Shown: positions 23,410 to 40,043 of the stretch, one piece after another
Position numbering within the stretch: the first letter of the stretch is position 1
Layout of the letters: every line of letters starts with the position of its first letter
Virus record (IMG/VR): IMGVR_UViG_3300020577_004280
Coordinates: 64,001-128,000 of that record
Source of the DNA: a virus
Taxonomy: Duplodnaviria > Caudoviricetes
Strand: one strand, 5' to 3'
Length of the DNA: 64,000 bases
Made by a program: the position numbers and the translations under genes
Notes under the pieces: model-generated
What the model was told of the DNA's origin: nothing
What the model saw: the letters and a program-made list of their open reading frames with translations, nothing else
The model's database searches: none

Positions 23410-26217
23410 ATGTCAAAAACAAAAATTCTAGCATGTACAGAAGCGACCTATCTATCTAGCGGTTATGCTAAATATTATAACGCTTTACTAAACTATCTTC
23501 ATAGTACGGGTGAGTTTGAGATTTGCGAACTAGCTTCGTGGGGTGATAATGCTGACCCACGTTCACACACTATACCTTGGAAATTTGTAGGCAATTTACC
23601 TTTTGGCGCAACATTTAATCAAGCTGACCCAAAAGAAATTCAGGCTTATGAATCAAATCCATATAACAAGTTTGGTGCGTTTAAGTTTGAGAAAACCGTT
23701 CTGGATTTTAAACCAGACCACGTTTGTGTACCGCCAGACTCTTTAGTATTTACCTCAGACGGTTATAAAGAAATACAAAATGTAAAAGTCGGAGACCAAG
23801 TTTTAACACATCTTGGTAGATTTAAACGTGTAATTTCTACTATGAAAAGACAATATAGTGGCAATATACGTAAAATATTTACTTACGGAAATGAATCACC
23901 GTTAGTTTGCACAGAGAATCACCCTGTATATAATTTCAAGTATACAAAAAGAAGTCATAATAAACGTAACAATTCATCAGTCTATTCATGTCAGCAGCCA
24001 GTATTTACCGAAGCTGATAAAATAAAAATAGGAGATTTAACATGTTTTCCTATTTTAACACAAAATAATCAAATATATCATACTATTAACGTATATGATT
24101 ATTTAGATAACGGTTATGTTGAAAATAATGAAGTTTCAACTAGTTTGCGTAGTAACAAAATTAATAATACAATCAAAATTGATAAAAATTTTGGTAGATT
24201 AATTGGATATATAATAGGAGATGGGTATATTGGCCCACATAGTGTGAATATCACATTTCATGGCGATGAAGATAGATTTGCAAAAGACGCAATAAAATTG
24301 TTTAAAGATATTTTTAATATTGATAGCAAAATTAGAAGTTGTGTACCTGATGGCAAAAATTGTATCACTGTCAGCGCGAATTCTATAGTCTTGAAAGAGT
24401 TTTTAAGTAAATTTATAGTTCATCACGATATTCCAAAAGTCTTTTGGATGTCTCCAGATGACGTAAAAGAAGGGTTAATCTGTGGTCTAACGCGTGCAGA
24501 CGGGTGTTATAAAAAAAATACAGTTAGTTTTGCGTCAATTGATAAAAAATTGGCTTATAATTATAAACAATTGTGCGTCCAATTAGGAATTCCAGTTAAT
24601 ATTACTAAAACAAAGAAAAAAACAGAAACTAATAATTTAAACGATTACTATGAAGTAAATGGATACGGGTCTTCAGCAACTACTTTACATACGATAGTTG
24701 ATAAGTATACTCCAGACTTATTGACACCATACGCTAATTCAAAGAGACCAAATCGTAAAACACAAATTATTAAGCATTGTATGACAACCGCTGTGCGAAT
24801 TAATAGGATAGATAAATATAAGGGTACAGTATATAATTTAGAAGTGGAAGATGATAATTCCTATGTTGTAGACAATTTCTGTGTACACAATTGTGACGTT
24901 AGAGACATTTGGCATTCACAACACGCCATTTCATCCCCTCTACGGCCATACTATAATCTTATCTTAATGCCAGCGATTGATGCCGAACCTCAAAAAGACG
25001 AGTGGGTATCACATTATAAAAGTGCCGACGCAATCATTACTTATACCGATTGGGCCAAAGATATATTAAACAAAATAAGTGGTTCTACTATTAAAACCAC
25101 TGTTTCAGCTTCACCTGTTTGCGATACATGTTTTACACCAGTGCTAGATAAAGCCAAACATAAACAAATGATGGGTTTTTCGCCTGAAATGAAGGTAATT
25201 GGTACAGTAATGCGTAACCAAAGAAGAAAATTATTTCCGGCATTAATCGAAACGTTTGAACGATACATTATAGATAATAATATCAATGACACCTATTTAT
25301 ACTGTCACACATCTTATCCAGATGATGGGTTCGATTTTCCGTCATTAATCAAATCATCAAAAATAGGTCATAAGATGATTTTTACTTACGTTTGTCGCAA
25401 ATGTGGCAATGTATCTCCTGGATTTTTCAAAGACGCCAAAACTGTTTGTACAAGATGTAATCATCTAGCTATGGGTATGCCAAATACCACTGTATCAGTA
25501 TCCAACGAAGTTTTATCACAAATATACAATTCTTTCGATATTTATGTACAATATGCTAGTCTTGAAGGATTCGGAATGCCTGTAGTAGAAGCCGCCGCAT
25601 GCGGTGTTCCTGTTATGGCGACTGATTATTCAGCTATGTCAGAAGTAGTAAGAAAATTATCTGGCATACCTTTAAAAGTAAAATATTTTAATACTGAAAT
25701 GGAAAGTGGCAGAAGATGGGCTTATCCAGACAATGATTACTTTATAGATAAGCTTAAAGAATTTTTTAACGCTAGTGAATCTAATATCAGGGCTTTATCC
25801 GCAATCACTAGACAGCGTTTTGAACAACACTATAATAATTGGGGAACAGTTGGTAGAAAATGGTATGATGTTATAAAGTTATTACCAAACAAAAATTTAT
25901 GGGATGCTCCACCTAATATAAATTATCCTCCAGCTTTTGATGAAAAACCATATATTTCCAATACTGATTATGCTAAATGGTTAATTTGTGATGTATTAGG
26001 AAGACCAGAATTTATGGGCACTAATATGGAATTAAGATTAATCAGAGACCTTAATTTTAATGCTACAAATTATGGTATGGGTGGTATGTATTATAATGAA
26101 GAAAGCTGCGAAGTAATAAATTCTAAGATAGAAGATTTTGACCGCAGTAAGGCATACCATCATATGTTGGGTTTATGTGAACATAAAAATACTCTTGAAA
26201 GATTAAGAACACAATGA
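23410..26217 (+). CDS. GT4 (GT-B) glycosyltransferase with intein and internal zinc ribbon
   Basis: SGYA N-terminal loop, RNQRRK, EGFGMPVVEAAACG.PV; CRKC..CTRC insert. Confidence 0.88.
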   Translation: MSKTKILACTEATYLSSGYAKYYNALLNYLHSTGEFEICELASWGDNADPRSHTIPWKFVGNLPFGATFNQADPKEIQAYESNPYNKFGAFKFEKTVLDFKPDHVCVPPDSLVFTSDGYKEIQNVKVGDQVLTHLGRFKRVISTMKRQYSGNIRKIFTYGNESPLVCTENHPVYNFKYTKRSHNKRNNSSVYSCQQPVFTEADKIKIGDLTCFPILTQNNQIYHTINVYDYLDNGYVENNEVSTSLRSNKINNTIKIDKNFGRLIGYIIGDGYIGPHSVNITFHGDEDRFAKDAIKLFKDIFNIDSKIRSCVPDGKNCITVSANSIVLKEFLSKFIVHHDIPKVFWMSPDDVKEGLICGLTRADGCYKKNTVSFASIDKKLAYNYKQLCVQLGIPVNITKTKKKTETNNLNDYYEVNGYGSSATTLHTIVDKYTPDLLTPYANSKRPNRKTQIIKHCMTTAVRINRIDKYKGTVYNLEVEDDNSYVVDNFCVHNCDVRDIWHSQHAISSPLRPYYNLILMPAIDAEPQKDEWVSHYKSADAIITYTDWAKDILNKISGSTIKTTVSASPVCDTCFTPVLDKAKHKQMMGFSPEMKVIGTVMRNQRRKLFPALIETFERYIIDNNINDTYLYCHTSYPDDGFDFPSLIKSSKIGHKMIFTYVCRKCGNVSPGFFKDAKTVCTRCNHLAMGMPNTTVSVSNEVLSQIYNSFDIYVQYASLEGFGMPVVEAAACGVPVMATDYSAMSEVVRKLSGIPLKVKYFNTEMESGRRWAYPDNDYFIDKLKEFFNASESNIRALSAITRQRFEQHYNNWGTVGRKWYDVIKLLPNKNLWDAPPNINYPPAFDEKPYISNTDYAKWLICDVLGRPEFMGTNMELRLIRDLNFNATNYGMGGMYYNEESCEVINSKIEDFDRSKAYHHMLGLCEHKNTLERLRTQ
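23725..24891 (+). mobile_element. Class 1 intein with LAGLIDADG homing endonuclease
   Basis: CVPPDSLV...CTENHP...LIGYIIGDG...GLTRADG...VYNLEV...VHN|C. Confidence 0.92.
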
Positions 26218-27317
26218 GAGTCTTATATATAAGTCATTTATTAGAACAAAGCGGGTGGGGTCAAGCTAGTAGAGATATTCTACAAGCTATGGATTCTGTC
26301 GGTATTGACGTAGTACCACGAATAGTTTACGCTAATAATCCAGCTTATAAACCGCAAGGTAGAATGTTAGCTTTACTACAGAAAAATAGTCAAAATTGTG
26401 ATGTAGTAATCCAGCATGTATTGCCGCACCTATTTCAATATAATGGAAACTTTAAAAAAAATATCGGTTTATACTACTCAGAAAGTAGTAATCTAAATTA
26501 CACACCATATTTTTCTTACCTAAATATGATGGATGAGTTGTGGGTACCATCTAAATTGATGGTGCGTCAAGCTAAAGAAAGTGGCGTAAAAACACCAATA
26601 TATCAAATACCTCACCCGTTTAACCAGATTGATACCAGCAAATACAATAAGCTACCAATAGCAGAATGTGAGATTGATGATTATGTGTTTTATTATTTAG
26701 GAGAAGCCAGTCGCAGGAAAAACTTAAGTGCTTTAATTAGAGCTTTTCATGCAGAGTTTTCATTTAATGAACCTGTGCAGTTAGTTATTAAAGCTAATAA
26801 ACCGGGAATGAGTAATATAGATTGCTCTAATTTTATCAACGAAATTTCTGCTGCTGCTAAAGAAAATTCAAAACTATACTATAATACAAATAAATTTAAA
26901 CAAGAAATTATTATCACTAGTGATATGACCGACGATAATATTAGAGAATTGCATAAAACATGCGATTGTTTAGTTGTACCTTCTAGTGGAGAAGCTATTA
27001 ACCTTCCGGCAATGGATGCCTTAAACTTTGGTAATATAGTGGTTGGTAATGCGATGACAGGTATTAGTGAGTTTATCAGACATACAGAAAATGGTTATTT
27101 AGTTGATGCTCATGAGAAAAAATGCTACGGTATGATTGAAGGATTTCAAGATATGTACTCCGCTCGCGAATCATGCTACGAAATAGATGAAATAGATTTG
27201 ATGAGGGGTATGAGATGGGCTTATAATAATAGAGATAAAAATACCACTACACTATCTCCTACTATAGAGGAAGTTGGTTTAATGATTAAGGAAAGATTAA
27301 ATGAATCAAGTAAGTAG
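26214..27317 (+). CDS. GT4-like glycosyltransferase
   Basis: SGWGQA, DELWVPS, RKNL, VPSSGEAINLPAMDA. Confidence 0.85.
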   Translation: MRVLYISHLLEQSGWGQASRDILQAMDSVGIDVVPRIVYANNPAYKPQGRMLALLQKNSQNCDVVIQHVLPHLFQYNGNFKKNIGLYYSESSNLNYTPYFSYLNMMDELWVPSKLMVRQAKESGVKTPIYQIPHPFNQIDTSKYNKLPIAECEIDDYVFYYLGEASRRKNLSALIRAFHAEFSFNEPVQLVIKANKPGMSNIDCSNFINEISAAAKENSKLYYNTNKFKQEIIITSDMTDDNIRELHKTCDCLVVPSSGEAINLPAMDALNFGNIVVGNAMTGISEFIRHTENGYLVDAHEKKCYGMIEGFQDMYSARESCYEIDEIDLMRGMRWAYNNRDKNTTTLSPTIEEVGLMIKERLNESSK

Positions 27318-28296
27318 TATATTAAGAGAAGCTACAAGAAATAAATTAGATAGACTTAATATTATCACCGCTCCAACCCACGAAACCTATTCCACTAATA
27401 TGAGCGGAGTAAACGCAGATTTCTATATGTTTCAACATCCATCATTTAAAAAATGGAATAATTCTTTCCGTGGTATGCCAAAAAATCACAGATTGTTAGA
27501 TGAAAGATTAGAATTAAAGCAACTCCCACAATATATAGATTATGATGTAGTATTAAGTCAAAATAAGTTTGGTCAATATGATGTGTTATCACAGATTGCC
27601 AAACACTACGGACTCCCATTAATCAGTCTTGAACATACTCTACCAATGGCTGAATGGCCACCTGCTCAAATGCAGAGAATGAAAAGTATGCAGGGTGATA
27701 TCAATCTATTTATTTCAGAATACAGTAAGAATAAATGGGGATTTGATGATGTCCCAAACACATACGTTATACATCACGGCGTAGATTCTGATACCTTTTG
27801 TCCGGGAAACAAAGAACGTTTACCTAGAATTTTATCAGTTGTAAATGATTGGATTAATAGAGATTGGTGTTGTGGGTTTAGTATTTGGCAAAGAGTAACA
27901 CAAGGATTACCTGTATTTCCAATTGGAGACACAAAAGGATTCTCAAGACAGTCAAATAGTACAGAAGAATTAGTTGATTTTTATCAAACATCACAAATTT
28001 TTATTAACACGTCAACTGTTAGTCCAATCCCATGTGCTTTACTCGAAGGTATGTCAACAGGTTGCGCATGTTTATCTACAGCTACTTGTATGATACCAGA
28101 AATTATACAACACGGCTATAACGGTTTTATTACCAATGATGAAAAAGAAATGCGTAACTATCTAGAGTTACTACTTAATGACGAGAAGTTAAGAAATGAA
28201 CTTGGACAAAACGCAAGAAAAACCATAGTCGAAAAATTCTCTTTGGAAAAATTTACTGAAAACTGGGATAACTTTTTAAGAATGGTGATTAAGTGA
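27301..28296 (+). CDS. GT4 glycosyltransferase
   Basis: HGVDSDTF, LLEGMSTG, PEII.HG.NGF, LGQNARKT...FS. Confidence 0.87.
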   Translation: MNQVSSILREATRNKLDRLNIITAPTHETYSTNMSGVNADFYMFQHPSFKKWNNSFRGMPKNHRLLDERLELKQLPQYIDYDVVLSQNKFGQYDVLSQIAKHYGLPLISLEHTLPMAEWPPAQMQRMKSMQGDINLFISEYSKNKWGFDDVPNTYVIHHGVDSDTFCPGNKERLPRILSVVNDWINRDWCCGFSIWQRVTQGLPVFPIGDTKGFSRQSNSTEELVDFYQTSQIFINTSTVSPIPCALLEGMSTGCACLSTATCMIPEIIQHGYNGFITNDEKEMRNYLELLLNDEKLRNELGQNARKTIVEKFSLEKFTENWDNFLRMVIK

Positions 28297-28739
28297 AAGC
28301 ATTTATAACAATATCAGAGCCAGCTATAGAAGGCTATACATACATCTCACCTTTATTGGGACATTATTTAAATGATATATCAAATTTGGTAGAGAATAAT
28401 GAATGTACAGAAATTTTAGCCCCGTCAATTATTAATTACTTACCATTCAACCAATTACAACAAACTATATCTAATTGGGTTAGTAAGCTTAGACACGGCG
28501 GTAAAATTATTATTGGTGGATACGATATGTATGAAATAGCCAAAAGAATTGTACGGGGAGAGATAGAAACTGATTTAGCTAATGTCCTACTTTATGGACA
28601 ACAAATCAATGTATGGGATGTGCAAAGAAGTCAAATTACACTAACAGATTTAGTAGACTTAATGACGCATTTGGGATTAAAAGTAATTAAGAAAAAATTA
28701 GATGGAGTAGAAATGATAGTAGAGGCGGTGAGACCATAA
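28293..28739 (+). CDS. truncated/degenerate class I methyltransferase-like protein
   Basis: W..KLRHGGKIII segment resembles the MTase C-terminal half; no SAM-binding glycine loop. Confidence 0.55.
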   Translation: MKAFITISEPAIEGYTYISPLLGHYLNDISNLVENNECTEILAPSIINYLPFNQLQQTISNWVSKLRHGGKIIIGGYDMYEIAKRIVRGEIETDLANVLLYGQQINVWDVQRSQITLTDLVDLMTHLGLKVIKKKLDGVEMIVEAVRP

Positions 28740-29566
28740 TGTTTATTACACATTGTAGAGATTGTGCTTTTGCTGTATTTGCTAATAATAAACAAATCGG
28801 CTGTCAATACGATAGAATTGAAAAATTTAAAAATTTGGGAATGGAAGTAAAAGAAGTCACAGAAAATGATTTAACCTATTACTCTATTAATACCTTTTGT
28901 AATCATTGTGTAAATAAGGATGTGTGGGAAAAAACTGAAAATCGAGAAACCGCTTTATATAATTTTACAGCTATAAAAAATACATTTATTTTTATTGATG
29001 AACAAAATTCAGATTTTAGCCAAACTTACAATAAGTTATTAAGTTCATGCCATTCAGCTATATTTGCTGATATTAGACCAAAAAATATATTATATATTCT
29101 AACTAATGCTACAAGATTTAATAGTAAAGAAAATGAGTCATTACTTGACTTAATGAGGTCTATACTAAAAGATACAGGAATTGAATTCTCTATATCATAC
29201 CCACTTGAGGGCGATACGTGGAATGAATATTTATACCAAATTAAAGGAAAAATCAAAACTGATTATTTTTCAGTATTTGAATCTGGAGAGAAAATTTCGC
29301 CATACTTTAATACCCACTTAAATAATATACTTAATATTGATGTAATTAGTTTTATTGTAGTTTCAGCGGAAAAGAGCGGGTGGACAATTAATAGAAAATT
29401 CTTAGAAATCTTTGGTTGGCACAACCCTGTGTTCTGTGGACAAGCAATACTGGATGAAGTAGAATCTAACGAATATCAAAGCGAATTAGTTAAAAAATTA
29501 GTTATAAACGGGAAAGATATAGATTTTTATGCAAAACCCACCATTAGTGACCATCGTAATAGCTAA
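28739..29566 (+). CDS. hypothetical protein (Cys-rich N-terminus; possible degenerate GT-A fold)
   Basis: CRDC..C...CNHC; located within the glycosylation cluster. Confidence 0.55.
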   Translation: MFITHCRDCAFAVFANNKQIGCQYDRIEKFKNLGMEVKEVTENDLTYYSINTFCNHCVNKDVWEKTENRETALYNFTAIKNTFIFIDEQNSDFSQTYNKLLSSCHSAIFADIRPKNILYILTNATRFNSKENESLLDLMRSILKDTGIEFSISYPLEGDTWNEYLYQIKGKIKTDYFSVFESGEKISPYFNTHLNNILNIDVISFIVVSAEKSGWTINRKFLEIFGWHNPVFCGQAILDEVESNEYQSELVKKLVINGKDIDFYAKPTISDHRNS

Positions 29567-30323
29567 TAATAATTATGGTGATTATATCAATGATGCTATT
29601 ACAAGTGCGTTAGAACAGTCTTACCCAAATATTAATTTGGTAATTGTTGATGATTGTTCTACAGATGATTCTTGGCAAAAGATACACGAATTAATCTTTA
29701 AAAAGAGTCAACATAGCAAAGATACTCAAAAACTTTTTGAGAAAAAAGAATGTAATATAAGCCGCTCTAATTATAATACTAAAATCACGGCTTTTAGATT
29801 AAATCAACAACTTGGTCCTAGCGAAGCTAGAAATTTAGCTATTGAGTATTCAATTAATATTACAGATTACTATGCAATACTAGATGCTGACGATTATTAT
29901 TATAAAGACAAGATTATAGAATTAATAAATGTAGCTATACAATCAGAACAAATTGGTGTAGTTTATGGAGATTATGATATATATAATGTGGATACTAAAG
30001 TAAAAAACAGAGAATATAAAGAACCGTATTCTCTTAGAAGACTACAACAAGAATGCATAGTTCATAGCGGTGCTTTAATTAAAGCTAGTGTTTTAACAGA
30101 AGTAAAAGAAAATACTGGTTACTATGATGCTAACCTAAGATGTGCCGAAGATTACGATTTATGGCTAAGAATTAGCGAAAAATATATAATAATACATGTA
30201 CCAAAATCATTATCATTGGTGCGTACTCACCAGAACAACTCTACAAACAGCGTTAAAAAAGAAATTTGGGAACGTTGTTGGAATATGGTTGCTCAAAAAT
30301 TCAAAGAACGGAACAATGTCTAA
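29529..30323 (+). CDS. GT2 glycosyltransferase
   Basis: VTIVI..NN, VDDCSTD, GPSEARN, LDADD, EDYDLWLR. Confidence 0.92.
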   Translation: MQNPPLVTIVIANNNYGDYINDAITSALEQSYPNINLVIVDDCSTDDSWQKIHELIFKKSQHSKDTQKLFEKKECNISRSNYNTKITAFRLNQQLGPSEARNLAIEYSINITDYYAILDADDYYYKDKIIELINVAIQSEQIGVVYGDYDIYNVDTKVKNREYKEPYSLRRLQQECIVHSGALIKASVLTEVKENTGYYDANLRCAEDYDLWLRISEKYIIIHVPKSLSLVRTHQNNSTNSVKKEIWERCWNMVAQKFKERNNV

Positions 30324-31032
30324 TAATACAAAATGTATCCATTCAATCAAGAAAACCGGAGTCGGTAAGGATAAAGATAAAAAGCTAAGTATAGTTTTAC
30401 TTAATGCTTTATGCGCTCATCGTATGAAATCTTTTGGTCCAAGATGTTTATTAAAACTGAACACCGGGGAAAACCTCATAGACAGCCAGTTAAAAATTCT
30501 CAAGGAATGTTACCCAAACTCAGAGATTATCATCACTGTTGGCTTTGATAGTGAGCGTATTATCAAGAAAAAGATACCAAATGTCAGATTTGTAGAAAAT
30601 CAATTGCATGAAAATACTAATATTGGTGAAGAAATAAGATTGGGTGTGCATAACTGCGAAACTAACAATATTCTCTTGATACAAGGCGAAACAGTTTTTA
30701 CTCATACTATTATTGATAATATTACTAAACAAGGGTCATGTATAGTTTGTGTAGATAATATAAATAATGATGAAGATGATGTTGGAGCTACGATAGTAAA
30801 TGATAATCTGACAATTTTAGCACATGGTTTACAACCTAAATTTGGTGGAATTGCGTTTATTACAGACCCAGAAATTACATATTTTAAACACCACGTGTGT
30901 ATAAAAGAAAACTCTAATATGTATTTCTTTGAATTAATTAATTTATTAGCAGCTAGATTTCATAAAATTAAAGCTATACAGCAACCAGAAGAAAAAATTA
31001 TTAGAATTGAATCTATCAAGGATATTAGATAA
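30316..31032 (+). CDS. Sugar/choline-phosphate nucleotidyltransferase-like protein (LicC/GlmU-N fold), divergent
   Basis: IVLLNA..HRMKSFGPRCLL, VGF, VEN...TN, QGE in place of GD. Confidence 0.7.
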   Translation: MSNNTKCIHSIKKTGVGKDKDKKLSIVLLNALCAHRMKSFGPRCLLKLNTGENLIDSQLKILKECYPNSEIIITVGFDSERIIKKKIPNVRFVENQLHENTNIGEEIRLGVHNCETNNILLIQGETVFTHTIIDNITKQGSCIVCVDNINNDEDDVGATIVNDNLTILAHGLQPKFGGIAFITDPEITYFKHHVCIKENSNMYFFELINLLAARFHKIKAIQQPEEKIIRIESIKDIR

Positions 31033-31035: not shown

Positions 31036-32097
31036 ATGAAAATCATTATCAGTAACGAAAATAAAAATGCCCACTATTATATCAGAATGGGTTTTGCAAA
31101 AGCTCTGTCTGCTTGTGGTCATGAAGTATTATTATGGGATTTAAACGAAAAAAGCGTGTTTGATGCGTTTGATGAACATCCTGATATGAATGTCTTGGTT
31201 ACTCAAACTTATAATGTGAATAAAGCTATGTATAAATGCCTTAAAGAAAGACCCTGGATAAAAGTAACAATGAAAGGGTCTGATTGGGGTATCGCTCAAG
31301 AAAACATGGATTTAAATAGATATCCCATTTTAGTTGCCAATCCAAGAGAAATAGAAACTATTCTAAAACTACATGACGAAACAGGTAAACCTGATTTTAT
31401 CGATATACATTACCATCAATCATCTGTGGAACAAACCCACTCTAAATGGATTGAAAAAGGTATAAAATGTGTTGGATTAATGAGCGGCGCCGATATTTCA
31501 GATTACCACGGCGGAAAAATAAAAGAAGAGTTAAAATGCGATATAGGATATATCGGAGGTTATTGGCCATATAAATCTCATACGTTAAACTCATATCTTA
31601 TTCCTTTATGTCAACCACAATATAATTATAGAATTAAAATTTTTGGAAATCAAAGTTGGGGAGTACCACAATATTGCGGGATGCTACCAACTGAAGAAGC
31701 TAAGAATCTATTTGTTTCAGCAAGTATATGTCCAAATATTAGTGAACCACACTCTCAAGTATATGGACATGATATAGTAGAACGACCGTTTAAACTACTA
31801 TCTGCTGGAGCTTTTATGATTACAGATTATGTCAAAAGCATGCAAGATAATGTTTTTGGTGATAATGTTGTTTATGCAAATTCTCCAGAAGATTTTAAAG
31901 AAAAAATTGATTTTTACTTGAAAAATCCAGAAAAACGATTAGACTATATTAGCCGTGGATACAATCATGTGATGAATAATCATACATATTTTCATCGAGC
32001 TATACAATTTTTTAATGAATTAGGCTTATCGTATGAAGCTGAAAAAGTCAAACAAGTTTATACTAAAATACAACAGGATATTAAATGCAAATCATAA
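31036..32097 (+). CDS. CgeB-like (Glyco_trans_1_2) glycosyltransferase
   Basis: CDIGYIG, ICPNI, ERPFK..AGAF.ITD, HTY.HR. Confidence 0.83.
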   Translation: MKIIISNENKNAHYYIRMGFAKALSACGHEVLLWDLNEKSVFDAFDEHPDMNVLVTQTYNVNKAMYKCLKERPWIKVTMKGSDWGIAQENMDLNRYPILVANPREIETILKLHDETGKPDFIDIHYHQSSVEQTHSKWIEKGIKCVGLMSGADISDYHGGKIKEELKCDIGYIGGYWPYKSHTLNSYLIPLCQPQYNYRIKIFGNQSWGVPQYCGMLPTEEAKNLFVSASICPNISEPHSQVYGHDIVERPFKLLSAGAFMITDYVKSMQDNVFGDNVVYANSPEDFKEKIDFYLKNPEKRLDYISRGYNHVMNNHTYFHRAIQFFNELGLSYEAEKVKQVYTKIQQDIKCKS

Positions 32098-32987
32098 ATG
32101 ATAAACGTATTCTTATTACTGGTGCAACAGGGTTTCTAGGTAGACACCTATTAGACTATCTTTATAGTGATAAAGTACATTTGAACACAAATTCACAAAT
32201 CAAGACTCTTAAATCTAGACTTAATGATATTAATGGGATTAAGGCGGAAATTGACGAATTCCAACCTAATGTAGTAGTCCATTTAGCAGCTATTCCTATA
32301 ATTAAACCAAATTCAGAACATCCAGATGAAATTATACAAACAAATATCAATGGAACCTTTAATCTTATCAATCTTGTACCAGACGGATGTAGATTTGTTT
32401 TTCTGTCTACAATTACTGTTTATGGCGACAAACCGGCTTATTTAGGTCAAATATATGAAAACACTACACTTGAGCCAACATCAATATATTCCGTTACAAA
32501 AATAGCTTGCGAAAATCTAATTAATGTTTACTCACAACAAGGTAAAATAGATGGATATTCATTAAGATTATGTGCTACTGTTGGTAAATATTCAACTCAT
32601 GGTATAGTTCACGATTTTGTTCACAAATTACGTTCTGAAAACCAATATCTTGAAGTTTTGGGCGATTTTCCTGGGTCAAAAAAACCGTTCTTATATCAAT
32701 CAGATGCTTGTAATGCTATAATAAAAACTATTAATTGTCTTGGTGGAAAACATAAAGAATTCAATATATGTAATTGGGATAATCTAACTGTATATGAGAT
32801 AGCTAAAGCTGTAATGGAAGGTTTAAATATTCATAAAGAAATAAAATGGTTGGGTAGTGCAGCTAATTGGAAAGGTGATAATAAACTAATTAATTGCTCA
32901 AACCATACGGCAGAAGTTTTCTTGGGTTGGAGACCTGAATTTTATAGCTACAACGCTATAGTAAAAACAGTGAGAGAATATGAATAA
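32085..32987 (+). CDS. NAD-dependent sugar epimerase/dehydratase (SDR)
   Basis: ITGATGFLG, HLAA, YSVTK. Confidence 0.9.
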   Translation: MQIINDKRILITGATGFLGRHLLDYLYSDKVHLNTNSQIKTLKSRLNDINGIKAEIDEFQPNVVVHLAAIPIIKPNSEHPDEIIQTNINGTFNLINLVPDGCRFVFLSTITVYGDKPAYLGQIYENTTLEPTSIYSVTKIACENLINVYSQQGKIDGYSLRLCATVGKYSTHGIVHDFVHKLRSENQYLEVLGDFPGSKKPFLYQSDACNAIIKTINCLGGKHKEFNICNWDNLTVYEIAKAVMEGLNIHKEIKWLGSAANWKGDNKLINCSNHTAEVFLGWRPEFYSYNAIVKTVREYE

Positions 32988-33651
32988 TATAATAGAAAAT
33001 ATCCCGGCTTTTTGTGTCCTTTTAGATAAAAGAATAGAATTTTGGCCAGAATTAGAATCACAATTCAAGAATGTTGGAATTAATCTTAAAGGATTACTAG
33101 TTGGAAAAGAAAAAATGAATTATGAATACTTCCATCATGATGTTAATGAAAAGCCACCAATATACGATACCACTAATCAATATCCTTCTTGGGTAAATGG
33201 TACTAATGCATTTAACGCATGGATATCCCATAAAAAAATATTACAATTTGCATATCACATAAATTGTGATAAAATAATGATAGTGGAAGACGATGTTAAA
33301 ATAGAGTCAGATTTTCAAGATATTATGCAAGATGTCAATCAATATTTTGAGCATCGCTCTTTTGATATGCTACAGTTTGGTGGATATCATCATAATAATA
33401 CTATCAAAGTATCAGACCATGTAGTAAAAACTCAAGCAAGCGGTGGATGGCACGGTGTTATAATCTCAAAAAGTATAATTCCACTTCTACTAAGTTTTGA
33501 ACCAATAGGACCGTTCGACTGGATATGCGAACAATTTATCCAACCAAAGTATGACTGTTATTGTATTCATCCCGGTATCATTAATCAAAAAGATGGTTTT
33601 TCATTCGTAGAAAATTCAAATTTAACCAAACCAGATAGGTATACACTATGA
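32980..33651 (+). CDS. GT25-like glycosyltransferase
   Basis: LDKR, SH..I, IVEDD, D-W near the C-terminus. Confidence 0.75.
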   Translation: MNNIIENIPAFCVLLDKRIEFWPELESQFKNVGINLKGLLVGKEKMNYEYFHHDVNEKPPIYDTTNQYPSWVNGTNAFNAWISHKKILQFAYHINCDKIMIVEDDVKIESDFQDIMQDVNQYFEHRSFDMLQFGGYHHNNTIKVSDHVVKTQASGGWHGVIISKSIIPLLLSFEPIGPFDWICEQFIQPKYDCYCIHPGIINQKDGFSFVENSNLTKPDRYTL

Positions 33652-34208
33652 TAGATGTTCCAGTTCTCATGTCTATTGAAGCTAGAGAAGATGTTTTTGA
33701 CTTTGTTGCTCACCAAGCTAAAGATGGTATGAATTTTGTAGAAATTGGTTCTTTTATTGGTGGTAGTATTTGTTATTTTGGACAAAAATTAAGACAATTA
33801 GACAAACATGTTAATCTAACAGCGGTTGACACATGGAAATTCGACAATATTTCTACCGGACATTTACAACTGGTAGAAAACAATGATTATTATCAAGCTT
33901 TCCTGCAAAATGTTGCTAAATGTGGATTATCTGTACAAACTGTAGTATCAGATTCTATAGCTGCCGCCGAAAAATTTGATGATGAAAGTATAGATTTTCT
34001 TTTCATTGATGGTTGTCATGAATATCCTTATACTGAAAACGAGCTAAAAGTTTGGCTACCTAAAATGAAGAAAAATTCTGTTATCGCTGGACACGATTAC
34101 GAAGACGCGGCTATTAAAAAAGCCGTAGCTAATGTGCTGGGCGAAATTAGAACAACACGATTAAATCACGAATGCTATCTTAAAGTATTGGGTGAAGGAT
34201 TAGCATGA
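33648..34208 (+). CDS. Class I SAM methyltransferase (Methyltransf_24-like)
   Basis: VEIGSFIGGS, AVDTW, FIDGCHEY, GHDY. Confidence 0.88.
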   Translation: MIDVPVLMSIEAREDVFDFVAHQAKDGMNFVEIGSFIGGSICYFGQKLRQLDKHVNLTAVDTWKFDNISTGHLQLVENNDYYQAFLQNVAKCGLSVQTVVSDSIAAAEKFDDESIDFLFIDGCHEYPYTENELKVWLPKMKKNSVIAGHDYEDAAIKKAVANVLGEIRTTRLNHECYLKVLGEGLA

Positions 34209-34855
34209 GTCTTCCAACTTTAGTAGACCACTGTACATATCAAGAAATATTCGATAAAGTTATAGAATCTGCTGATGACGGTATAGTAATTGTTGAAATA
34301 GGTGTTTTTGTCGGTGGCTCGGTTTGTTATCTTAGTCAAAAACTTAAAGAAAAAAATATAGATTATAAAATCATAGCTATTGATAATTTTAAATTTAGTA
34401 ATATATCTACACAAGATAATGAAAAATATGCTCAAAATTTACAACCATATATAGCTTATTCTAATAATATTCGTAAATTTAAAGCTAATGTTATTACAAT
34501 GATTGGTGATTCAATAGAAATTAGTCAATTATTTAAAGACAATACTATAGATTTTCTATATATAGACGGTGACCATTCAGAGTATTGTATTAAAGAACTA
34601 AAACAATGGTTACCAAAAATGAAAGAAAATTCATTAATAGCTGGTCATGATTATGACGGGTCAGCACACGTAAGGAAAGCATGTAAGAAATATTTAGGTA
34701 TATTTCGAATAACTAGTAACAATGCTTCATATTATAAACAAATAGGAGAAGGTATCTTGAACAAAAAGAAAATAATTACACCAAAAACAAAAGCAAGAAT
34801 ATTTTTATATTTTTATAGTTGGTATAAATGGTTTATGGGATTGGTAGGTAAATAA
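34205..34855 (+). CDS. Class I SAM methyltransferase (Methyltransf_24-like), paralog of the upstream gene
   Basis: VEIGVFVGGS, YIDGDH, WLPKMK, GHDY. Confidence 0.88.
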   Translation: MSLPTLVDHCTYQEIFDKVIESADDGIVIVEIGVFVGGSVCYLSQKLKEKNIDYKIIAIDNFKFSNISTQDNEKYAQNLQPYIAYSNNIRKFKANVITMIGDSIEISQLFKDNTIDFLYIDGDHSEYCIKELKQWLPKMKENSLIAGHDYDGSAHVRKACKKYLGIFRITSNNASYYKQIGEGILNKKKIITPKTKARIFLYFYSWYKWFMGLVGK

Positions 34856-35547
34856 TGGAATTATGTCCTTGTGATATTAGAACTCATAGTTTTGCTCAAT
34901 TAATTAGAGAGATTGAATCTAAAGGTTATTCACCAATTAAAAGTAAAGACGTTATTCATATCGGGGCACATGATGGGATAGAAGCAGACATTTACGACTA
35001 TTTTGGCGCGAAATCTGTGTTCTGGTTTGAATGTAATCCATACGTATTCCCTAATTTACTTAAACGTATTAACGAAAAAACCCGGCCAGCTAAACACTTA
35101 GCTTATCAGGCAGCTTTATGGAGCGAAGCCGGTAAAACATTAGATTTTAACTTTTATAGAGATAAACGCGATGGTGCTTCAGGATTCTATCTTCCAGAGA
35201 AAATGTTTGACTACATCAAAGACTGTCCTTTATTAGAAGAAAAAATTCAAATTAAAACTAATACATTAGATAACTATATTAATGATGGTATTATTGATAT
35301 ATCAAATATTTCATTGTTAAATCTAGATGTACAGGGTGCTGAATTAGAGGTCTTTAAAGGCGCTAACGTTCTGTTAAATAAGTCTTCTCTTAAATTTATT
35401 TGGTGTGAAGTATCTTGGGATAAAGTATATAAAGACGCACCGGTAATGGATGATATCACCACATATCTTAACAAGTTTGGATTCCAGTTCGGTGGATTAA
35501 GAAAAGACTGGGAAATTCATGGTGATGCTTTATATTGGAGAGATTAA
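34855..35547 (+). CDS. FkbM-family methyltransferase
   Basis: IHIGAHDG, FECNP, TLD, LNLDVQGAELEV.KG, GDALY. Confidence 0.9.
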   Translation: MELCPCDIRTHSFAQLIREIESKGYSPIKSKDVIHIGAHDGIEADIYDYFGAKSVFWFECNPYVFPNLLKRINEKTRPAKHLAYQAALWSEAGKTLDFNFYRDKRDGASGFYLPEKMFDYIKDCPLLEEKIQIKTNTLDNYINDGIIDISNISLLNLDVQGAELEVFKGANVLLNKSSLKFIWCEVSWDKVYKDAPVMDDITTYLNKFGFQFGGLRKDWEIHGDALYWRD

Positions 35548-36446
35548 TGAGAATTATAGATACATTTTTGTTCAGTGAACCACACGAAAAAGAATTACTA
35601 CTAACCAAATTTCATCTGGAAGATTTGGGTGTAGATAAATGGGTTATACTTGAAAGTCCTTATACGTTTCAAGGTGAATATAAAGGATTACATGTTAGTA
35701 AAATATTAAACGAAGATATTAGATTTCAACCGTTTGTCGATAAAATTATAGTAATTAACCCAGCTAAAGACTTTACACCATTACACGGCAATACAAATGA
35801 TGAAGGAAAGAATTTTGACCGCGAAAACGCTCAACGAGCTATGGTTTTAGGTCTAATTCATGAATTAGCTGACAATGATTGGGTTATGATATCTGATACC
35901 GATGAAGCGGTAGATTTCTCTGACATAACACGAAAAAATAACGTACTGTATTATTTAAATGGTCAAAGTTTTTGTGATATGTTCAAATTACAAAGACAAA
36001 GATACTGGTTTGATTTCGATAATAAATGTTTCTTACCAAATATTCATATACCTTTAGTTAAAGCCGGATTAATTAAGCAAAACAGTCAATGTATTATGGC
36101 TAGACACTTTGACCATATTCCTAAAGTAAATTTTGACGATAAACCGGTCGCGTTCGAGTATTCATACTGTTTTCCTTCTTTTGAAGACGTATGGCGTAAA
36201 AAATGCACATATAGTCATACAGGATTTACACAGGAAAGTGTGAGAACAGCACTAGAATGTAATCATTGGCCACGTTCAGAACTACGTGGAGAAAAAGTAG
36301 GTCAAGAGCCTTACGATTTCTTTGAGAAAGTAGAACTAACAGAAGAGAATTCTCCAAAGTACGTTAGAGAAAACCTAGAAAAATTGAGAACAAATATAGT
36401 AAATCCAAATTATAAGGAAGCGAGAGTGGCCAGATATGGGGTTTGA
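35547..36446 (+). CDS. GT17-like (MGAT3-type GlcNAc transferase) glycosyltransferase
   Basis: IIDTFLF...E.ELL, VILES..TFQG, RENAQR, ISDTDE. Confidence 0.78.
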   Translation: MRIIDTFLFSEPHEKELLLTKFHLEDLGVDKWVILESPYTFQGEYKGLHVSKILNEDIRFQPFVDKIIVINPAKDFTPLHGNTNDEGKNFDRENAQRAMVLGLIHELADNDWVMISDTDEAVDFSDITRKNNVLYYLNGQSFCDMFKLQRQRYWFDFDNKCFLPNIHIPLVKAGLIKQNSQCIMARHFDHIPKVNFDDKPVAFEYSYCFPSFEDVWRKKCTYSHTGFTQESVRTALECNHWPRSELRGEKVGQEPYDFFEKVELTEENSPKYVRENLEKLRTNIVNPNYKEARVARYGV

Positions 36447-37083
36447 GTTCTATCATAATCATGAGATGAGTGTATTTGCCAATCTAATTCCATCAAATGG
36501 TCAGTTTTTAGAAACCGGTGTGTGTACTGGCAATTCAGCCAATCTTATGTTGGAGCATCTAAAATCAGCTAATTTTTCTGCGTATTTTGGATTTGACAGC
36601 TTTATTGGATTACCAGCACCGCGTAACGAATGGATATCTCCAGATTGGCATGAAGGAAGTTTTGATGCTGTAGAACACTTTAAAGCAGCGAGTGTAGATG
36701 ATGTAAAGACAATCATTCATAATCTTCTAGACCCTCATGGTGTTCCTATTACACTTATTGATGGATGGTATTCAGACACATTAAATCAAGATACTATTAA
36801 AAAATTTGGTATCAATAAAGCGAGTTATGTAAATATAGATGTAGACTATTATAGTTCAACAATTGAAGTATTAGATTTCCTATTTAAGTATGATTTACTA
36901 ATGGAAAATACTGTTATAAGATATGATGATTGGTTGAGTGGTCCAGAGTGGCAAACATGTAATAGTAAAGCACATTTAGAAAAAATAAATGAATACGGTA
37001 TTCTATTTAATAGAATTGGAACAAACGTATTTCAATATATAGGCAAAACAAAGGACTTTTCGTTCGGAAATTCAATAACATAG
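36436..37083 (+). CDS. TylF/MycF-like sugar O-methyltransferase
   Basis: LETGV..G.S, GFDSFIGLP, GWYSDTL, NIDVDYYSS, YDDW. Confidence 0.85.
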   Translation: MGFEFYHNHEMSVFANLIPSNGQFLETGVCTGNSANLMLEHLKSANFSAYFGFDSFIGLPAPRNEWISPDWHEGSFDAVEHFKAASVDDVKTIIHNLLDPHGVPITLIDGWYSDTLNQDTIKKFGINKASYVNIDVDYYSSTIEVLDFLFKYDLLMENTVIRYDDWLSGPEWQTCNSKAHLEKINEYGILFNRIGTNVFQYIGKTKDFSFGNSIT

Positions 37084-37113: not shown

Positions 37114-38049
37114 GTGAAAGGTTTAAGATTAGGAATAACTGGTGTTGGCGGATATATTGGTAATGTCTTAGCAAGACAATTATTAGCTGCCGGTGCCGAA
37201 GTAGTTGGTATGGACAATTTCCACAAAGGACAATGTGACGCTTTAATTGGTTTAGTCACAAATCCAAACTTTACATTCCAATATGGAGATGTAACAAAAG
37301 AAAAGGATGTGGAAAAATTGACACAAAAATTGGACGGAGTTTTTCATTTAGCTGGTATTGTAGGATTTCCAGCTTGTGATAGACAGCCTGCTTTGTCGCA
37401 TAATGTAAATGTTGATGGAACCAAAATTATAGCTAAACACTGTGGTTCAATACCAGTGGTCAACTATAGTTCTGGCTCAGTGTACGGTGCTTTAGCAGAA
37501 ATTTGCACAGAAGAAAGCCCAATTAATACAACAACGTTATACGGTTTACAAAAATACGAAGCAGAACAAATCATCAACGAATTACCAAATAGTGTGTCAT
37601 TAAGATTCGCTACAGGTATGGGATTGGGAGAAACTGTTAGAGTCAACCTTTTGGTCAACGACCTAGTGTACCAAGCGGTACACAATAGGGTAATCGACGT
37701 ATTTGAAAGACACGCTAGAAGAACATTTATTCATGTACGTCATATGGCTAGAGCCTCTATTCTTTGTATGGATAAATTACTTAAAAATGAACTAAAATAC
37801 AAAGTGTATAACGTTGGCGACAATAACATGAATTGTACTAAAGGTTCATTAACAGAGATGGTCAAAGAAAAAACCGGATGTTTTGTTAATTACATTGAAT
37901 TTGGCAAAGATAAAGATTGTCGTGACTATGAAGTAGATTATAGTAAAATTAATGCTGAAGGATTTAAATGCGAAATTTCCTTAGAGCAAGGAATTGACGA
38001 ATTAATTAAAGCGGCTCCACTAATATATATTAGAAATAGATTTGAATAA
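37114..38049 (+). CDS. NAD-dependent sugar epimerase/dehydratase (SDR)
   Basis: ITGVGGYIG, HLAGIVGFPAC, YGLQK, RTFIHV. Confidence 0.9.
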   Translation: MKGLRLGITGVGGYIGNVLARQLLAAGAEVVGMDNFHKGQCDALIGLVTNPNFTFQYGDVTKEKDVEKLTQKLDGVFHLAGIVGFPACDRQPALSHNVNVDGTKIIAKHCGSIPVVNYSSGSVYGALAEICTEESPINTTTLYGLQKYEAEQIINELPNSVSLRFATGMGLGETVRVNLLVNDLVYQAVHNRVIDVFERHARRTFIHVRHMARASILCMDKLLKNELKYKVYNVGDNNMNCTKGSLTEMVKEKTGCFVNYIEFGKDKDCRDYEVDYSKINAEGFKCEISLEQGIDELIKAAPLIYIRNRFE

Positions 38050-38058: not shown

Positions 38059-38628
38059 ATGAAAGTATACGTAGCAAAAACAAGAACAGAAAATAGAATA
38101 AATTCTGGAGAATTTGTAGTAGCATATAACGAAGAAGATTTGGTACTACCAAGTTTTGCAAATTTAAATGTTCTACTAGAGTTATCCGATATTAGTTTTT
38201 ATCACGTTGGTTTTAAGATGGGTGAAGTTCTCACTAGTCTAAGAAATCTTTTACCAAACGCTAAACTTGGTGGAGCAGAACTAGAAGATTTATATGCTGC
38301 TTATTCGCATAAATTATTTAATAATCGTGACTCTAACATTAATATGGAAGTACGTAATTTCCTAGAATCAACCGCTGGTGATAAATATGAGGTTGTGTTT
38401 TCTACAGAATTACTTGGTAAATACGGGTTAGATGACCAAAAACGAATGGTTAATAATATGTTGGCAGCTTCTACTAAGTATGTTGCTTTCCTAGAACCAA
38501 CAAACGCTGATTTATGCGGTTATATTGAATTTTTAGGACACGAAGTTAATAATACAACTGATGGTTTTATTGTAGTTACTAAAGTAGAAAAGAAAAATGA
38601 CACAAAATCAAATACAAAAGACAAGTAA
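38059..38628 (+). CDS. degenerate methyltransferase-like protein
   Basis: YHVGFKMG, GAEL, YEVVFS, KYVAFLE follow the class I MTase strand order; AAGGAG RBS. Confidence 0.5.
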   Translation: MKVYVAKTRTENRINSGEFVVAYNEEDLVLPSFANLNVLLELSDISFYHVGFKMGEVLTSLRNLLPNAKLGGAELEDLYAAYSHKLFNNRDSNINMEVRNFLESTAGDKYEVVFSTELLGKYGLDDQKRMVNNMLAASTKYVAFLEPTNADLCGYIEFLGHEVNNTTDGFIVVTKVEKKNDTKSNTKDK

Positions 38629-39583
38629 GATACTGATTACCGGCGGGTCTAGCATGATTGGTAAGCATCTATATAAAGCCCTGCTATATCGCGGTTATAG
38701 AAATATTAAATATAGTGGATTTAGCCAAGACGAATCTAATGATGGCGGTGTACATAGATTTGGTTTTGACCTAACTGATGCGGAAGATACAGAGTCATTA
38801 TTCCGTGCTGCGCGGTCACAATATGTATTCAATCTAGCCGGATACAATGGCAACATCTCTTTCAGTCAAAAGTACCAAGCTGACATCTTCTTTAAAACTA
38901 GTCAGATAGCCTTAAACAGTCTATACTACGCTCATAAATATGAGGTAACAAAGTGTGTTAATATCCTATCTTCTTGTGCTATTGCTGACCTAGGTGATAA
39001 GAAACTAAAAGCAGAAGAACTATGGAATGGCCCACCTAATCAAACTATAGAAGCGCACGGTTTTGCTAAACGAATTTGGGATGCCTATTCTCGTCAACTA
39101 TTTAAACAACACAACTTTAACTCAGTATGTGCTATTGTTAATAACTCTTATGGAGAATTCGATAATACTGATATTGAAAAGACAAAAGCTGTAATGGGTA
39201 TTATCAAACGTGTGGTGAATGCTAAAAGACAAAATTTACCATATATAGAATGCTGGGGTAGTGGACAGGTATTTCGCGAGTTTATCTATGCTGGTGACGT
39301 AGCCAACGCTTTAATCGATGTAATGGAAAATTATAATAATCCTATGTGCCCAATTAATGTAAGCACAGAAGATGAAATTTCAATTTATGACCTGACATAT
39401 AAAATTGCGGAAATAGTTGGTTATACTGGTGAAATTAAGTGGGATACTACAAAACCAGATGGTCAAAAGAGAAAATCACTAGATATATCTAATATGCGAG
39501 AATACGTAAAATCTGAATTTACACCAATCGAAATCGGTATACGCAAGACTATCGAATGGTATATGGAGAATTATAATGATTAG
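38597..39583 (+). CDS. GDP-L-fucose synthase-like epimerase/reductase (variant active site)
   Basis: ITGG.SMIG, LSSC, N.YG..DN, WGSG...REF.Y..D, WDTTKPDGQ.RK.LD. Confidence 0.85.
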   Translation: MTQNQIQKTSKILITGGSSMIGKHLYKALLYRGYRNIKYSGFSQDESNDGGVHRFGFDLTDAEDTESLFRAARSQYVFNLAGYNGNISFSQKYQADIFFKTSQIALNSLYYAHKYEVTKCVNILSSCAIADLGDKKLKAEELWNGPPNQTIEAHGFAKRIWDAYSRQLFKQHNFNSVCAIVNNSYGEFDNTDIEKTKAVMGIIKRVVNAKRQNLPYIECWGSGQVFREFIYAGDVANALIDVMENYNNPMCPINVSTEDEISIYDLTYKIAEIVGYTGEIKWDTTKPDGQKRKSLDISNMREYVKSEFTPIEIGIRKTIEWYMENYND

Positions 39584-40043
39584 ATGTGGTATTATGGTGG
39601 ATTCACTAGCTCCATCACAATTAACGTTTTATTTAGTGAATTATGTAAATACGATTATGTCACAGTCGGTACATAACCATTTTATATTTTTCCTTAACGA
39701 AATTACCCCGTTTTTAATCAATCCTCTCTGTCCTTGTTTAAACTCTACTGAAATTGTTCAATTCAATGACGGAATCATCGTCACTACAACTTTAAATGAC
39801 ACGCTGAGAGCGATACACGCAATACATAATTCATCTATTAAATTTTACGTATGGGACTTGGAATGGATACGTCGCCCATTAGATTATTTCACTAATTATT
39901 ACATTTTTAATAATCCAAGGGTTGAGATTATCGCTCGCTCACACGAACACGCAAAAATGATAGAAAACTATGCTAATCTAAAAAAGGTTAGAGTAGTAGA
40001 AAACTGTGATATGGAGAAAATATTATGCCTACGCCAAGATTAG
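39576..40043 (+). CDS. hypothetical protein (possible GT-B N-domain fragment)
   Basis: FYVWDLEW, IIARS, VVEN motifs; last gene of the glycosylation cluster. Confidence 0.55.
   Translation: MIRCGIMVDSLAPSQLTFYLVNYVNTIMSQSVHNHFIFFLNEITPFLINPLCPCLNSTEIVQFNDGIIVTTTLNDTLRAIHAIHNSSIKFYVWDLEWIRRPLDYFTNYYIFNNPRVEIIARSHEHAKMIENYANLKKVRVVENCDMEKILCLRQD

Follow-up and report, generated by a model that had tools for sequence, protein, structure and literature searches.

The window analysed here is a 64,000-nt stretch of DNA from a tailed phage (Caudoviricetes), which represents bases 64001-128000 of a single 154,037-bp IMG/VR virus entry. At window positions 23410-40043 it contains a 16.6-kb cluster of 19 open reading frames (ORFs), all on the plus strand in the ORF listing. 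The family assignments support a cytoplasmic glycan pathway that would consist of soluble enzymes only. The locus is an inherited, syntenic core module of the phage lineage and holds the same position in all relatives compared; the 19-gene form seen here is likely an expanded version of a smaller ancestral locus. The glycan acceptor might well be the phage's own virion proteins, glycosylated before lysis, although this reading is held only tentatively. Positions below are those of the window unless a genome or contig is named, and genes are referred to by their start positions where needed.

Neighbouring ORFs of the cluster mostly overlap by 1-38 nt, and the widest gap is 30 nt; the 19 co-oriented, mostly coupled genes described in the initial annotation thus agree with the ORF listing. 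A promoter and terminator scan over 22500-42400 gave no excess over the shuffled expectation. The census includes seven glycosyltransferases (GTs) recognised by Pfam and two further GT-fold proteins, three sugar enzymes of the short-chain dehydrogenase/reductase (SDR) type, six methyltransferase-like proteins, and one nucleotidyltransferase. The seven GTs (three GT4, GT2, CgeB-like, GT25-like and GT17-like), the three SDRs and the four methyltransferases (two Methyltransf_24, FkbM and TylF) had been recognised before, and Pfam agrees, with the GT25-like assignment marginal; two more methyltransferase-like proteins (28293 and 38059) were added. The five cluster genes without a Pfam match (28293, 28739, 30196, 38059 and 39576) could all be assigned to the glycan theme by other methods. 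The families of the first inventory therefore stand; what it had missed was a 389-aa intein in the lead GT4. Its description of a phage-encoded pathway for glycan synthesis and methylation by soluble enzymes is supported by the family assignments and by hydropathy.

The arrangement is not due to chance, as 78-80 of 80 related loci have this gene order. These loci were fetched via the CgeB-like GT and are the basis of all counts out of 80; a second, independent sample comprised five large records picked by the putative capsid protein alone. The shared order starts with the C-terminal half of the split DNA polymerase III alpha subunit (Pol III alpha; DnaE-C) and the single-stranded DNA-binding protein (SSB), followed by the lead GT4, two other GT4, the short methyltransferase-like protein, the Cys4/GT-A protein, the GT2, the nucleotidyltransferase and the CgeB-like GT. 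It continues with an SDR, a variable stretch, two SDRs, the GT-B half-domain, a helix-turn-helix (HTH)-DUF559 protein, and the 40823-type and 42529-type proteins. The left-flank order (DnaE-C, a 163-aa ORF, SSB) is the same in 72-78 of the 80 loci, and the locus always lies directly after the split DnaE and SSB. Core genes occur in 76-80 loci with median identities of 36-47%, compared with 38% for DnaE-C and 41% for SSB; the divergence of the core GTs is therefore close to that of DnaE and SSB, and fits vertical inheritance. With regard to synteny in related large phages, the order is kept, yet only part of the cluster is conserved.

The rare genes are those at 32980-37083 plus 38059, and the methylation block 32980-37083 represents a variable island. 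The island opens with a GT25-like gene (32980..33651; Pfam E 3e-5, just over the cut-off; 19/80 loci). It is followed by a Methyltransf_24 gene (33648..34208; Pfam E 1.4e-20; 6/80), a second Methyltransf_24 gene similar to rhamnosyl-O-methyltransferases (34205..34855; Pfam E 4e-16, RMNT_CmcI E 1e-4; 4/80), an FkbM-family methyltransferase gene (34855..35547; Pfam E 6e-15; 28/80), and a GT17-like gene (35535..36446; Pfam E 1.7e-9) found in one locus of the 80. A TylF-type O-methyltransferase gene (36436..37083; Pfam E 5e-12; 6/80) closes the island. The gene at 38059, whose product resembles pseudaminic-acid-associated methylases of the class I S-adenosylmethionine-dependent methyltransferases (38059..38628; NCBIfam E 1.8e-5), was found in none of the 80 loci. 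Its product also reached 0.96 in Atlas features and a TM score of ~0.7 in structure to Methyltransf_11/25 clusters.

Across the loci, the CgeB-like GT and the half-domain gene are 2.8 to 9.7 kb apart (7.5 kb here). The 594 ORFs located after the CgeB-like GT in the 80 loci fall into 153 protein clusters, including 70 singletons. A Pfam census of 150 island representatives revealed SDRs, seven methyltransferase families, DegT aminotransferases, CMP-sugar cytidylyltransferases, sulfotransferases, NeuB, FdtA, cupins, HAD hydrolases, GT2, GT25, GT47, and RXYLT1-like proteins. Such chemistry is typical of exposed, recognised surfaces. The Jaccard similarity of island content was 1.0 where the CgeB-like GTs share at least 95% identity, 0.46 at 60-80%, and 0.15 below 60%. 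The idea that the island differs between near-identical strains was dropped, since its content tracks core divergence. In the complete genome G002, GT25-like and FkbM homologs were observed beyond the split DnaE (88932-90193), apart from the main locus; the glycan genes are therefore not always one block.

The capsid-selected sample extends this comparison to smaller loci. The lead GT4 was found in all five of these records (E 1e-188 to 1e-275); whereas the CgeB-like GT had a clear match in only two. At the same position, genome G009 has a locus of 8.4 kb with 11 genes and no SDR. The smallest locus seen, in G006, is also at this position and has 4.8 kb with six genes: the lead GT4, two unknowns, the nucleotidyltransferase, one unknown, and the GT-B half-domain. 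G006 and G009 are among the relatives in which the right flank (HTH-DUF559 and 40823-type proteins) keeps its position. What these loci have in common is the lead GT4, the nucleotidyltransferase and the half-domain, which are therefore likely the ancestral core. As a side observation, a sigma-70 region 2 protein (E 1.9e-15) is encoded directly upstream of the lead GT4 in G006 (L198:3438-3914), which is only distantly related.

The lead GT4 (23410..26217; Pfam Glycos_transf_1 E 8e-11) is encoded as a 935-aa precursor. After removal of the intein it has 546 aa, with a Cys4 insert, a C-terminal extension and an intact EX7E motif. Its homologs of 525-620 aa are found in 78 of the 80 loci, and no other gene of the locus is as widely conserved. 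In an alignment of 18 homologs, the residues C272/C275/C290/C293 and E329/E337 are invariant. BshA and GtfA/Gtf1 are among its nearest solved relatives, but these matches are weak (E 8e-5 to 6e-4). The enlarged, universal lead GT4 would be a natural candidate for the acceptor-specific priming enzyme.

The insert of 389 aa in this protein (23725..24891; Pfam LAGLIDADG_3 E 1e-12 plus Hint/intein matches) has the sequence features of a canonical class 1 homing intein. The signature comprises Cys1 and a terminal His-Asn followed by Cys+1, the Hint blocks, and a LAGLIDADG endonuclease; the host protein is continuous without the insert. The boundaries were set by alignment to intein-free homologs, and the insertion site is a PD(I/V)V|xD(I/V)RD motif, where the bar marks the insertion. 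None of the 78 lead GT4 homologs carries the intein. The closest relative found (L007:3865-6258) has an intein-free lead GT4; its second GT4 has 797 aa instead of the usual ~375, and the insert in it resembles the intein described here (25% identity). Because the L007 insert sits in the second GT4 instead of the lead, inteins seem to move among the GT genes of the locus.

Other core enzymes were assigned with different degrees of support. The second GT4 (26214..27317; Pfam Glycos_transf_1 E 1.4e-14; 78/80 loci) and the third GT4 (27301..28296; E 5.8e-17; 79/80) are followed further downstream by a GT2 with a DAD motif (29529..30323; Pfam Glycos_transf_2 E 9e-19), which has the DxD signature and is present in all 80 loci. 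The CgeB-like GT (31036..32097) matched Glyco_trans_1_2 (PF13524) with E 8e-22 and 78.2 bits against a cut-off of 25. The ORF that opens at 30196 encodes a sugar-phosphate nucleotidyltransferase-like protein (76/80 loci), which had also been proposed initially; its profile matched GlmU/LicC in the PDB with E 1.7e-8, and the ATG at 30316 is the likely true start (30316..31032).

The three SDR genes encode an NDP-sugar 4,6-dehydratase-like protein (32085..32987; Pfam Epimerase E 3e-33), a GalE-like epimerase (37114..38049; E 9e-31), and a 3,5-epimerase/4-reductase similar to GDP-fucose synthase (38597..39583; E 2e-34; 59/80 loci). All three contain the GxxGxxG and YxxxK motifs. The best NCBIfam matches were dTDP-glucose 4,6-dehydratase for 32085, GalE for 37114 and Fcl (GDP-fucose synthase, E 8.8e-50) for 38597, all under the equivalog cut-offs. 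These matches suggest a 6-deoxyhexose pathway and do not fix the sugar identity.

Three further proteins were assigned by structure or features. The short class I methyltransferase-like protein of 148 aa (28293..28739; 51/80 loci) is possibly degenerate, and reached 0.93 in Atlas features to viral Methyltransf_11/23 clusters. The protein at 28739..29566 has a Cys4 N-terminal module (C6/C9/C22/C54 invariant) and a GT-A-fold domain in the predicted model (pLDDT 86). Its Foldseek matches included UGGT, GT8, SpsA and IspD folds (E 3e-5, TM score 0.35-0.4) as well as viral GT-A proteins; a PDB profile search gave chance-level rows only, and the modelled fold makes it a candidate eighth glycosyltransferase. 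The conserved right end of the cluster (39576..40043) encodes a predicted stand-alone N-terminal, acceptor-side domain of the GT-B/GT4 type. Its model (pLDDT 90.6) matched GT4 enzymes with a VIA Z of 15.6 and a root-mean-square deviation of 2.4 Å over 149 of 155 residues, but a comparison with the lead GT4 by hhalign reached no significance. For 28293, 39576, 40823 and the CgeB-like GT, profile searches of the PDB were uninformative.

The flanking proteins on the right are not glycan enzymes. This flank (40025..41830, plus strand) includes the HTH and DUF559 protein (Pfam DUF559 E 5e-5) and a conserved 335-aa protein (40823), for which family searches, including PDB profiles, revealed no family. 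The left flank (20815..23335, plus strand) comprises the C-terminal half of the split Pol III alpha (PHROG DNA polymerase E 4e-85), a 163-aa ORF (22452-22943) without a match in the family search, and the SSB (E 3e-17). Between the two Pol III alpha halves, an RNase_T/DnaQ-like exonuclease (20071-20775, plus strand; E 1.3e-12) was observed, which may be a proofreading subunit. Further downstream of the locus are a weakly nucleoside 2-deoxyribosyltransferase-like protein (41832-42395), a GroES (43011-43325; Cpn10, E 2.8e-24), and a CAP-domain protein (44350-44805).

The source record has 34% G+C and a CheckV completeness of 82%. Its tailed-phage genes include a DnaB-type helicase, an SSB, a terminase with an insertion, and a weak portal match; Pol III alpha is encoded by two genes (17005-18561 and 20815-22455). 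The phage belongs to a large uncultured aquatic lineage of ~160 kb, whose complete relatives have 161-164 kb. No DNA-level match for the locus or the record was found among 50,697 GenBank phage records. In tblastn searches of GenBank phages, the CgeB-like GT, the GT17-like GT and the putative capsid protein gave no match, and the third GT4 gave two weak partial matches only. Single-sequence scans of viral contigs gave no relatives; an alignment query with the CgeB-like GT gave 153 IMG/VR contigs. Metagenomic proteins include 651 homologs of this GT; Tara ocean samples are the source of some, and some are encoded on contigs of 130-180 kb. One other sequencing run, a riverine metagenome, contains a third of the sampled words, with small shares elsewhere; no RNA sequencing run containing them was listed. 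Cellular genomes gave distant homologs only (27-33% identity), plus a 4.6-kb contig (45%) binned with a metagenome-assembled genome of Nitrosopelagicus; this contig was rejected as a host clue, being probably a mis-binned phage fragment. Identity with the moraphages was also rejected: these are described with four core GT groups, a DNA polymerase of family B and genomes of 200-307 kb (PMC12619734); whereas the lineage here has a split Pol III alpha and 161-164 kb.

The machinery for membrane export and for initiation was searched in whole genomes. A hydropathy scan of the 154-kb record and two 100%-complete relatives showed no ORF with more than three hydrophobic segments; the ORFs with three segments were few and had 72-222 aa. 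Downstream of the core, 584 of the 594 ORFs from the 80 loci have no hydrophobic segment, and none is polytopic. The Bac_transf family (PF02397), which includes the small monotopic PglC-type initiators, was absent in G000, G001, G002, G003 and G007, with positive controls; ABC_tran (PF00005) was absent in the same five lineage genomes, with 14 of 14 controls positive. Four of these five genomes are at least 90% complete. Thus neither an initiating phosphoglycosyltransferase of a Wzx/Wzy- or ABC-type locus, including a polytopic WecA candidate, nor a flippase with polymerase or an ABC transporter was found by the hydropathy of three genomes, in the 80 loci, or by PF02397 and PF00005 in five genomes. 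The features shared with such a locus are the nucleotide-sugar genes, the several GTs, and the variable centre between conserved flanks. The initial annotation had seen no exporter, initiator or polytopic protein in the window, and this now holds for whole lineage genomes by hydropathy, PF02397 and PF00005. It had also argued that export partners for lipopolysaccharide (LPS) or exopolysaccharide elsewhere in the genome would indicate host-surface conversion; such partners were looked for, and none was found in the five lineage genomes.

A pathway could be drawn up from these enzymes. Activated sugars would be made or topped up by the nucleotidyltransferase together with the 4,6-dehydratase-like and epimerase/reductase-like SDRs, yielding a 6-deoxyhexose nucleotide, and the GalE-like epimerase would also be available for the sugar supply. 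The first sugar would be transferred to a conserved acceptor by the 546-aa lead GT4, possibly with the lone GT-B N-domain protein. The chain might then be extended by the two other GT4, the GT2, the CgeB-like GT and the GT-A-fold protein, here also by the GT25-like and GT17-like proteins. Tailoring would be the role of the lineage-variable island, and in this phage it would be O-methylation. What we infer from the genes is which sugar is made, in which order the GTs act, that O-methylation is directed at sugars and not at something else, and that the acceptor is a virion protein.

Virion proteins would be the most likely acceptor because no step crosses a membrane and the product leaves by lysis; this would be comparable to the glycosylated capsids and fibrils of chloroviruses and mimiviruses and to the spore crusts of Bacillus. 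As expected for virion glycosylation, the virus encodes soluble GTs and, as in the giant-virus kind, its own nucleotide-sugar supply, with the nucleotidyltransferase loop degenerate in this phage. The homing intein inside the lead GT4 was also counted for this reading. The CgeB family is tied to spore-surface glycans that are made in the cytoplasm of the mother cell.

Several points weigh against virion proteins as the acceptor. Most relatives keep the GxG loop of the nucleotidyltransferase, which is lost here, and the GT25-like protein (32980) has no DxD; some of the reactions could thus be lost. The cluster is situated in the replication/recombination arm and not in the structural arm, and no direct link between a virion protein and the locus was found. 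The C-terminus of the putative capsid protein is conserved and compact, and lacks a Ser/Thr-rich tail like that of the mycobacteriophages. The tested structural-arm proteins had no Pfam match and only weak portal/terminase matches in PHROG, so that acceptor motifs could not be judged in them. Moreover, the peripheral GTs of LPS-core and O-unit pathways also have no membrane spans; the missing exporter therefore does not exclude a host-exported product.

Some structural proteins might be considered as acceptors. The putative capsid protein (genome 138572-139573; 333 aa) is 57-61% identical to its counterparts in G001 and G002, and is the most conserved structural protein, with at least 350 relatives in IMG/VR; its assignment is based only on its position after the portal and on its conservation. 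An 811-aa structural-arm protein (54248-56683, minus strand) contains 19 Ser-Gly pairs against 8.6 expected, compared with 7 Gly-Ser pairs against 8.6, and its positional counterpart in G001 (122413-126579, minus strand) has 42 Ser-Gly pairs against 11.7. The enrichment was not borne out in homologs of a 204-aa protein, and it may represent an acceptor motif or a mere fibre repeat. Past the window end, seven small genes were observed between the putative capsid and tail genes (genome 135002-138457, minus strand; L005:15002-18457). They have no Pfam match and no counterpart in G001 or G002, and one of them encodes a 171-aa protein with a Thr-rich stretch; these genes are possibly variable decoration proteins.

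A more far-reaching form of the virion reading concerns phage 'serotypes'. A variable virion glycan would be started by the priming GT4, and the island would add methyl, sulfate, amino and nonulosonic-acid chemistry. This is conceivable, but we are rather doubtful about it. The same doubt applies to the related proposal that the locus is built like a bacterial O-antigen locus and might be the first of its kind in tailed phages outside the mycobacteriophages, and a far more elaborate one.

Remodelling of the host envelope is the main alternative, although we regard it as rather unlikely. Here, the soluble GTs would act on the host lipid A-core, an undecaprenyl-linked O-unit or a teichoic acid precursor, with export by the host MsbA, Wzx or ABC systems, and the changed surface would block superinfection or the sticking of progeny to debris. 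LPS-core and O-antigen loci typically contain GT4, GT2, GT25 and NDP-sugar SDRs, and the conserved flanks with a variable centre mirror O-antigen loci. Such GTs are normally peripheral, so their lack of membrane spans is no counter-argument. However, surface-conversion genes are usually accessory; whereas this locus is universal, vertically inherited and intein-bearing. None of five genomes was found to contain an initiating phosphoglycosyltransferase, a flippase, a polymerase, a ligase or an ABC component, so all membrane steps would have to be borrowed; and the Pfam search of the cluster showed no heptosyl- or Kdo-transferase family. On the other side, cyanomyoviruses with 13 GTs and 22 cell-wall genes have been interpreted in this way (PMC12801897).

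Another cytoplasmic acceptor, such as a non-virion protein of phage or host, RNA, or a small molecule made during infection, appears improbable. All enzymes are soluble, as this would require, and the weak relatives of the lead GT4 include both BshA with a small-molecule acceptor and GtfA/Gtf1 with a protein acceptor. Nevertheless, at least five conserved GTs and a fast-changing tailoring are hard to explain for an unseen internal target, and no candidate acceptor gene is conserved within the locus.

The families for DNA-base modification were searched as well. ThyA-type (PF00303), TET/JBP (PF12851) and C5-methylase (PF00145) proteins were not found in this 82%-complete record, which contains ThyX; in G002 (100% complete) and G003 (90% complete), neither ThyA-type nor TET/JBP proteins were detected. 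Genome G001 has ThyA (43471-44499) and no ThyX; in this phage and in G002 it is the reverse, with ThyX present and ThyA missing. The ThyA of G001 is regarded as an ordinary thymidylate synthase swap, because ThyX is missing there. The TET negative is weaker, since the TET model was over its cut-off in no control genome. With this silent control, the initial observation that the window has no base hydroxymethylase or TET/JBP extends to the whole record, and the lineage genomes searched revealed no conserved way of making hydroxylated DNA bases.

DNA hypermodification, in which the GTs would glycosylate a modified base against restriction and the island would diversify the sugar, is therefore very improbable: the locus does lie between DnaE/SSB and DNA-metabolism-like genes, two cluster proteins contain Cys4 modules, phage GTs related to LPS and teichoic acid enzymes put mono- to trisaccharides on 5-hydroxymethylcytosine (10.1101/2023.12.21.572611), and poly-arabinosylated 5-hydroxycytosine exists (PMC13326640), but a ThyA homolog or a TET-type 5mYOX is required in the known routes, and a set of at least seven GTs plus genes for O-methyl, sulfo and nonulosonic-acid groups goes beyond every DNA glycan known. 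As a separate observation, a 526-aa protein (44825-46405, minus strand) has DUF7487 and endonuclease-like PHROG matches in its N-terminal part and Mom-family/GNAT similarity in its C-terminal part. Its Pfam Mom score was 30.8 bits (cut-off 27.1), and it might serve a DNA modification that is separate and does not involve sugars.

If the glycan is on the virion, an abundant aquatic phage lineage would have a sugar coat that varies between its members. This would matter for how phage particles in water adsorb, aggregate, are grazed, decay and are recognised, and ordinary tailed phages would join the giant viruses and a few mycobacteriophages as cases of autonomous viral glycosylation. Independently of the acceptor, the loci compared, which extend from six genes in 4.8 kb to 19 genes in 16.6 kb and share the lead GT4, provide a defined minimal system: the lead GT4 plus the nucleotidyltransferase and the GT-B half-domain. 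The variable islands also supply soluble enzymes for glycan tailoring that do not depend on an exporter.

A close analogy in gene content is with the giant viruses. PBCV-1 (Vp54) and mimivirus (fibrils) also have their own nucleotide-sugar pathway, several soluble GTs, methyltransferase domains and no membrane export; their gene content varies by strain, and their glycans carry O-methylated 6-deoxyhexoses. For example, the capsid glycan of PBCV-1 contains 2,3-di-O-methyl rhamnose, and the virus encodes the pair of dehydratase and epimerase/reductase (PMC4691112). However, these viruses have eukaryotic hosts and another capsid lineage, and their glycans are chemically proven, compared with genes alone here. 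No relation was shown at the sequence level; only the GT-A fold of 28739 is shared. Among tailed phages, the mycobacteriophages Che8, Corndog and Myrna are reported to modify their own capsid and tail-tube proteins in the cytoplasm by phage GTs (Freeman et al. 2023, as cited in PMC12363180 and PMC12619734). They use one to few GTs, and the targets are the C-termini of the capsid and tail tube; whereas the locus here encodes 7-9 GT-type proteins with sugar-nucleotide and tailoring enzymes. Neither a C-terminal acceptor tail nor homology to Che8 gp110 or Corndog gp38 was seen here, the capsid C-terminus being compact, and three cluster proteins had no match in mycobacteriophages by tblastn.

The cyanomyoviruses P-SSM2, S-SCSM1 and S-SCSM2R are also aquatic, with many GTs and NDP-sugar epimerases. 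Their 'LPS/cell-wall' clusters have a debated target, and S-SCSM2R encodes 13 GTs (PMC12801897). Given these GTs and the 22 cell-wall genes, the earlier description of the present pathway as far more elaborate than known ones was not upheld. The cyanomyoviruses differ in their T4-like backbone; whereas the lineage here has a split DnaE and a capsid protein that matches no GenBank phage. Three cluster proteins have no detectable homology there, and the genes here form a contiguous, operon-like block at a fixed position, with a universal lead GT and an island.

The bacterial O-antigen, capsule and flagellin loci share the conserved flanks and variable centre, and the GT4, GT2, GT25, SDR, DegT, NeuB, CMP-sugar synthetase and methyltransferase families; the Bacillus spore-crust genes (cgeB, sps) share the CgeB family domain. 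In the spore-crust and flagellin systems, proteins are glycosylated without a lipid carrier. In contrast to the bacterial loci, there is no phosphoglycosyltransferase, flippase, polymerase or ABC transporter here, and the locus is virus-encoded and inherited with replication genes. The DNA hypermodification clusters (T-even glucosyl-5-hydroxymethylcytosine, 5mYOX/ThyS-linked and arabinosyl-5-hydroxycytosine types) also have LPS-type GTs beside DNA-metabolism genes; however, their base-hydroxylating partner was not found here, the GTs here are more numerous, and the tailoring chemistry is unknown on DNA. Many-GT clusters in aquatic phages, such as the 13 GTs of S-SCSM2R, and core GT groups in moraphages were thus already known. 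What is new is the lineage and, for the locus, its fixed position, its operon-like organisation, its universal lead GT4 and its size range of 6 to 19 genes; further new features are the division into a core and a variable island, the lack of an exporter and initiator across whole genomes, and the inteins in GT genes.

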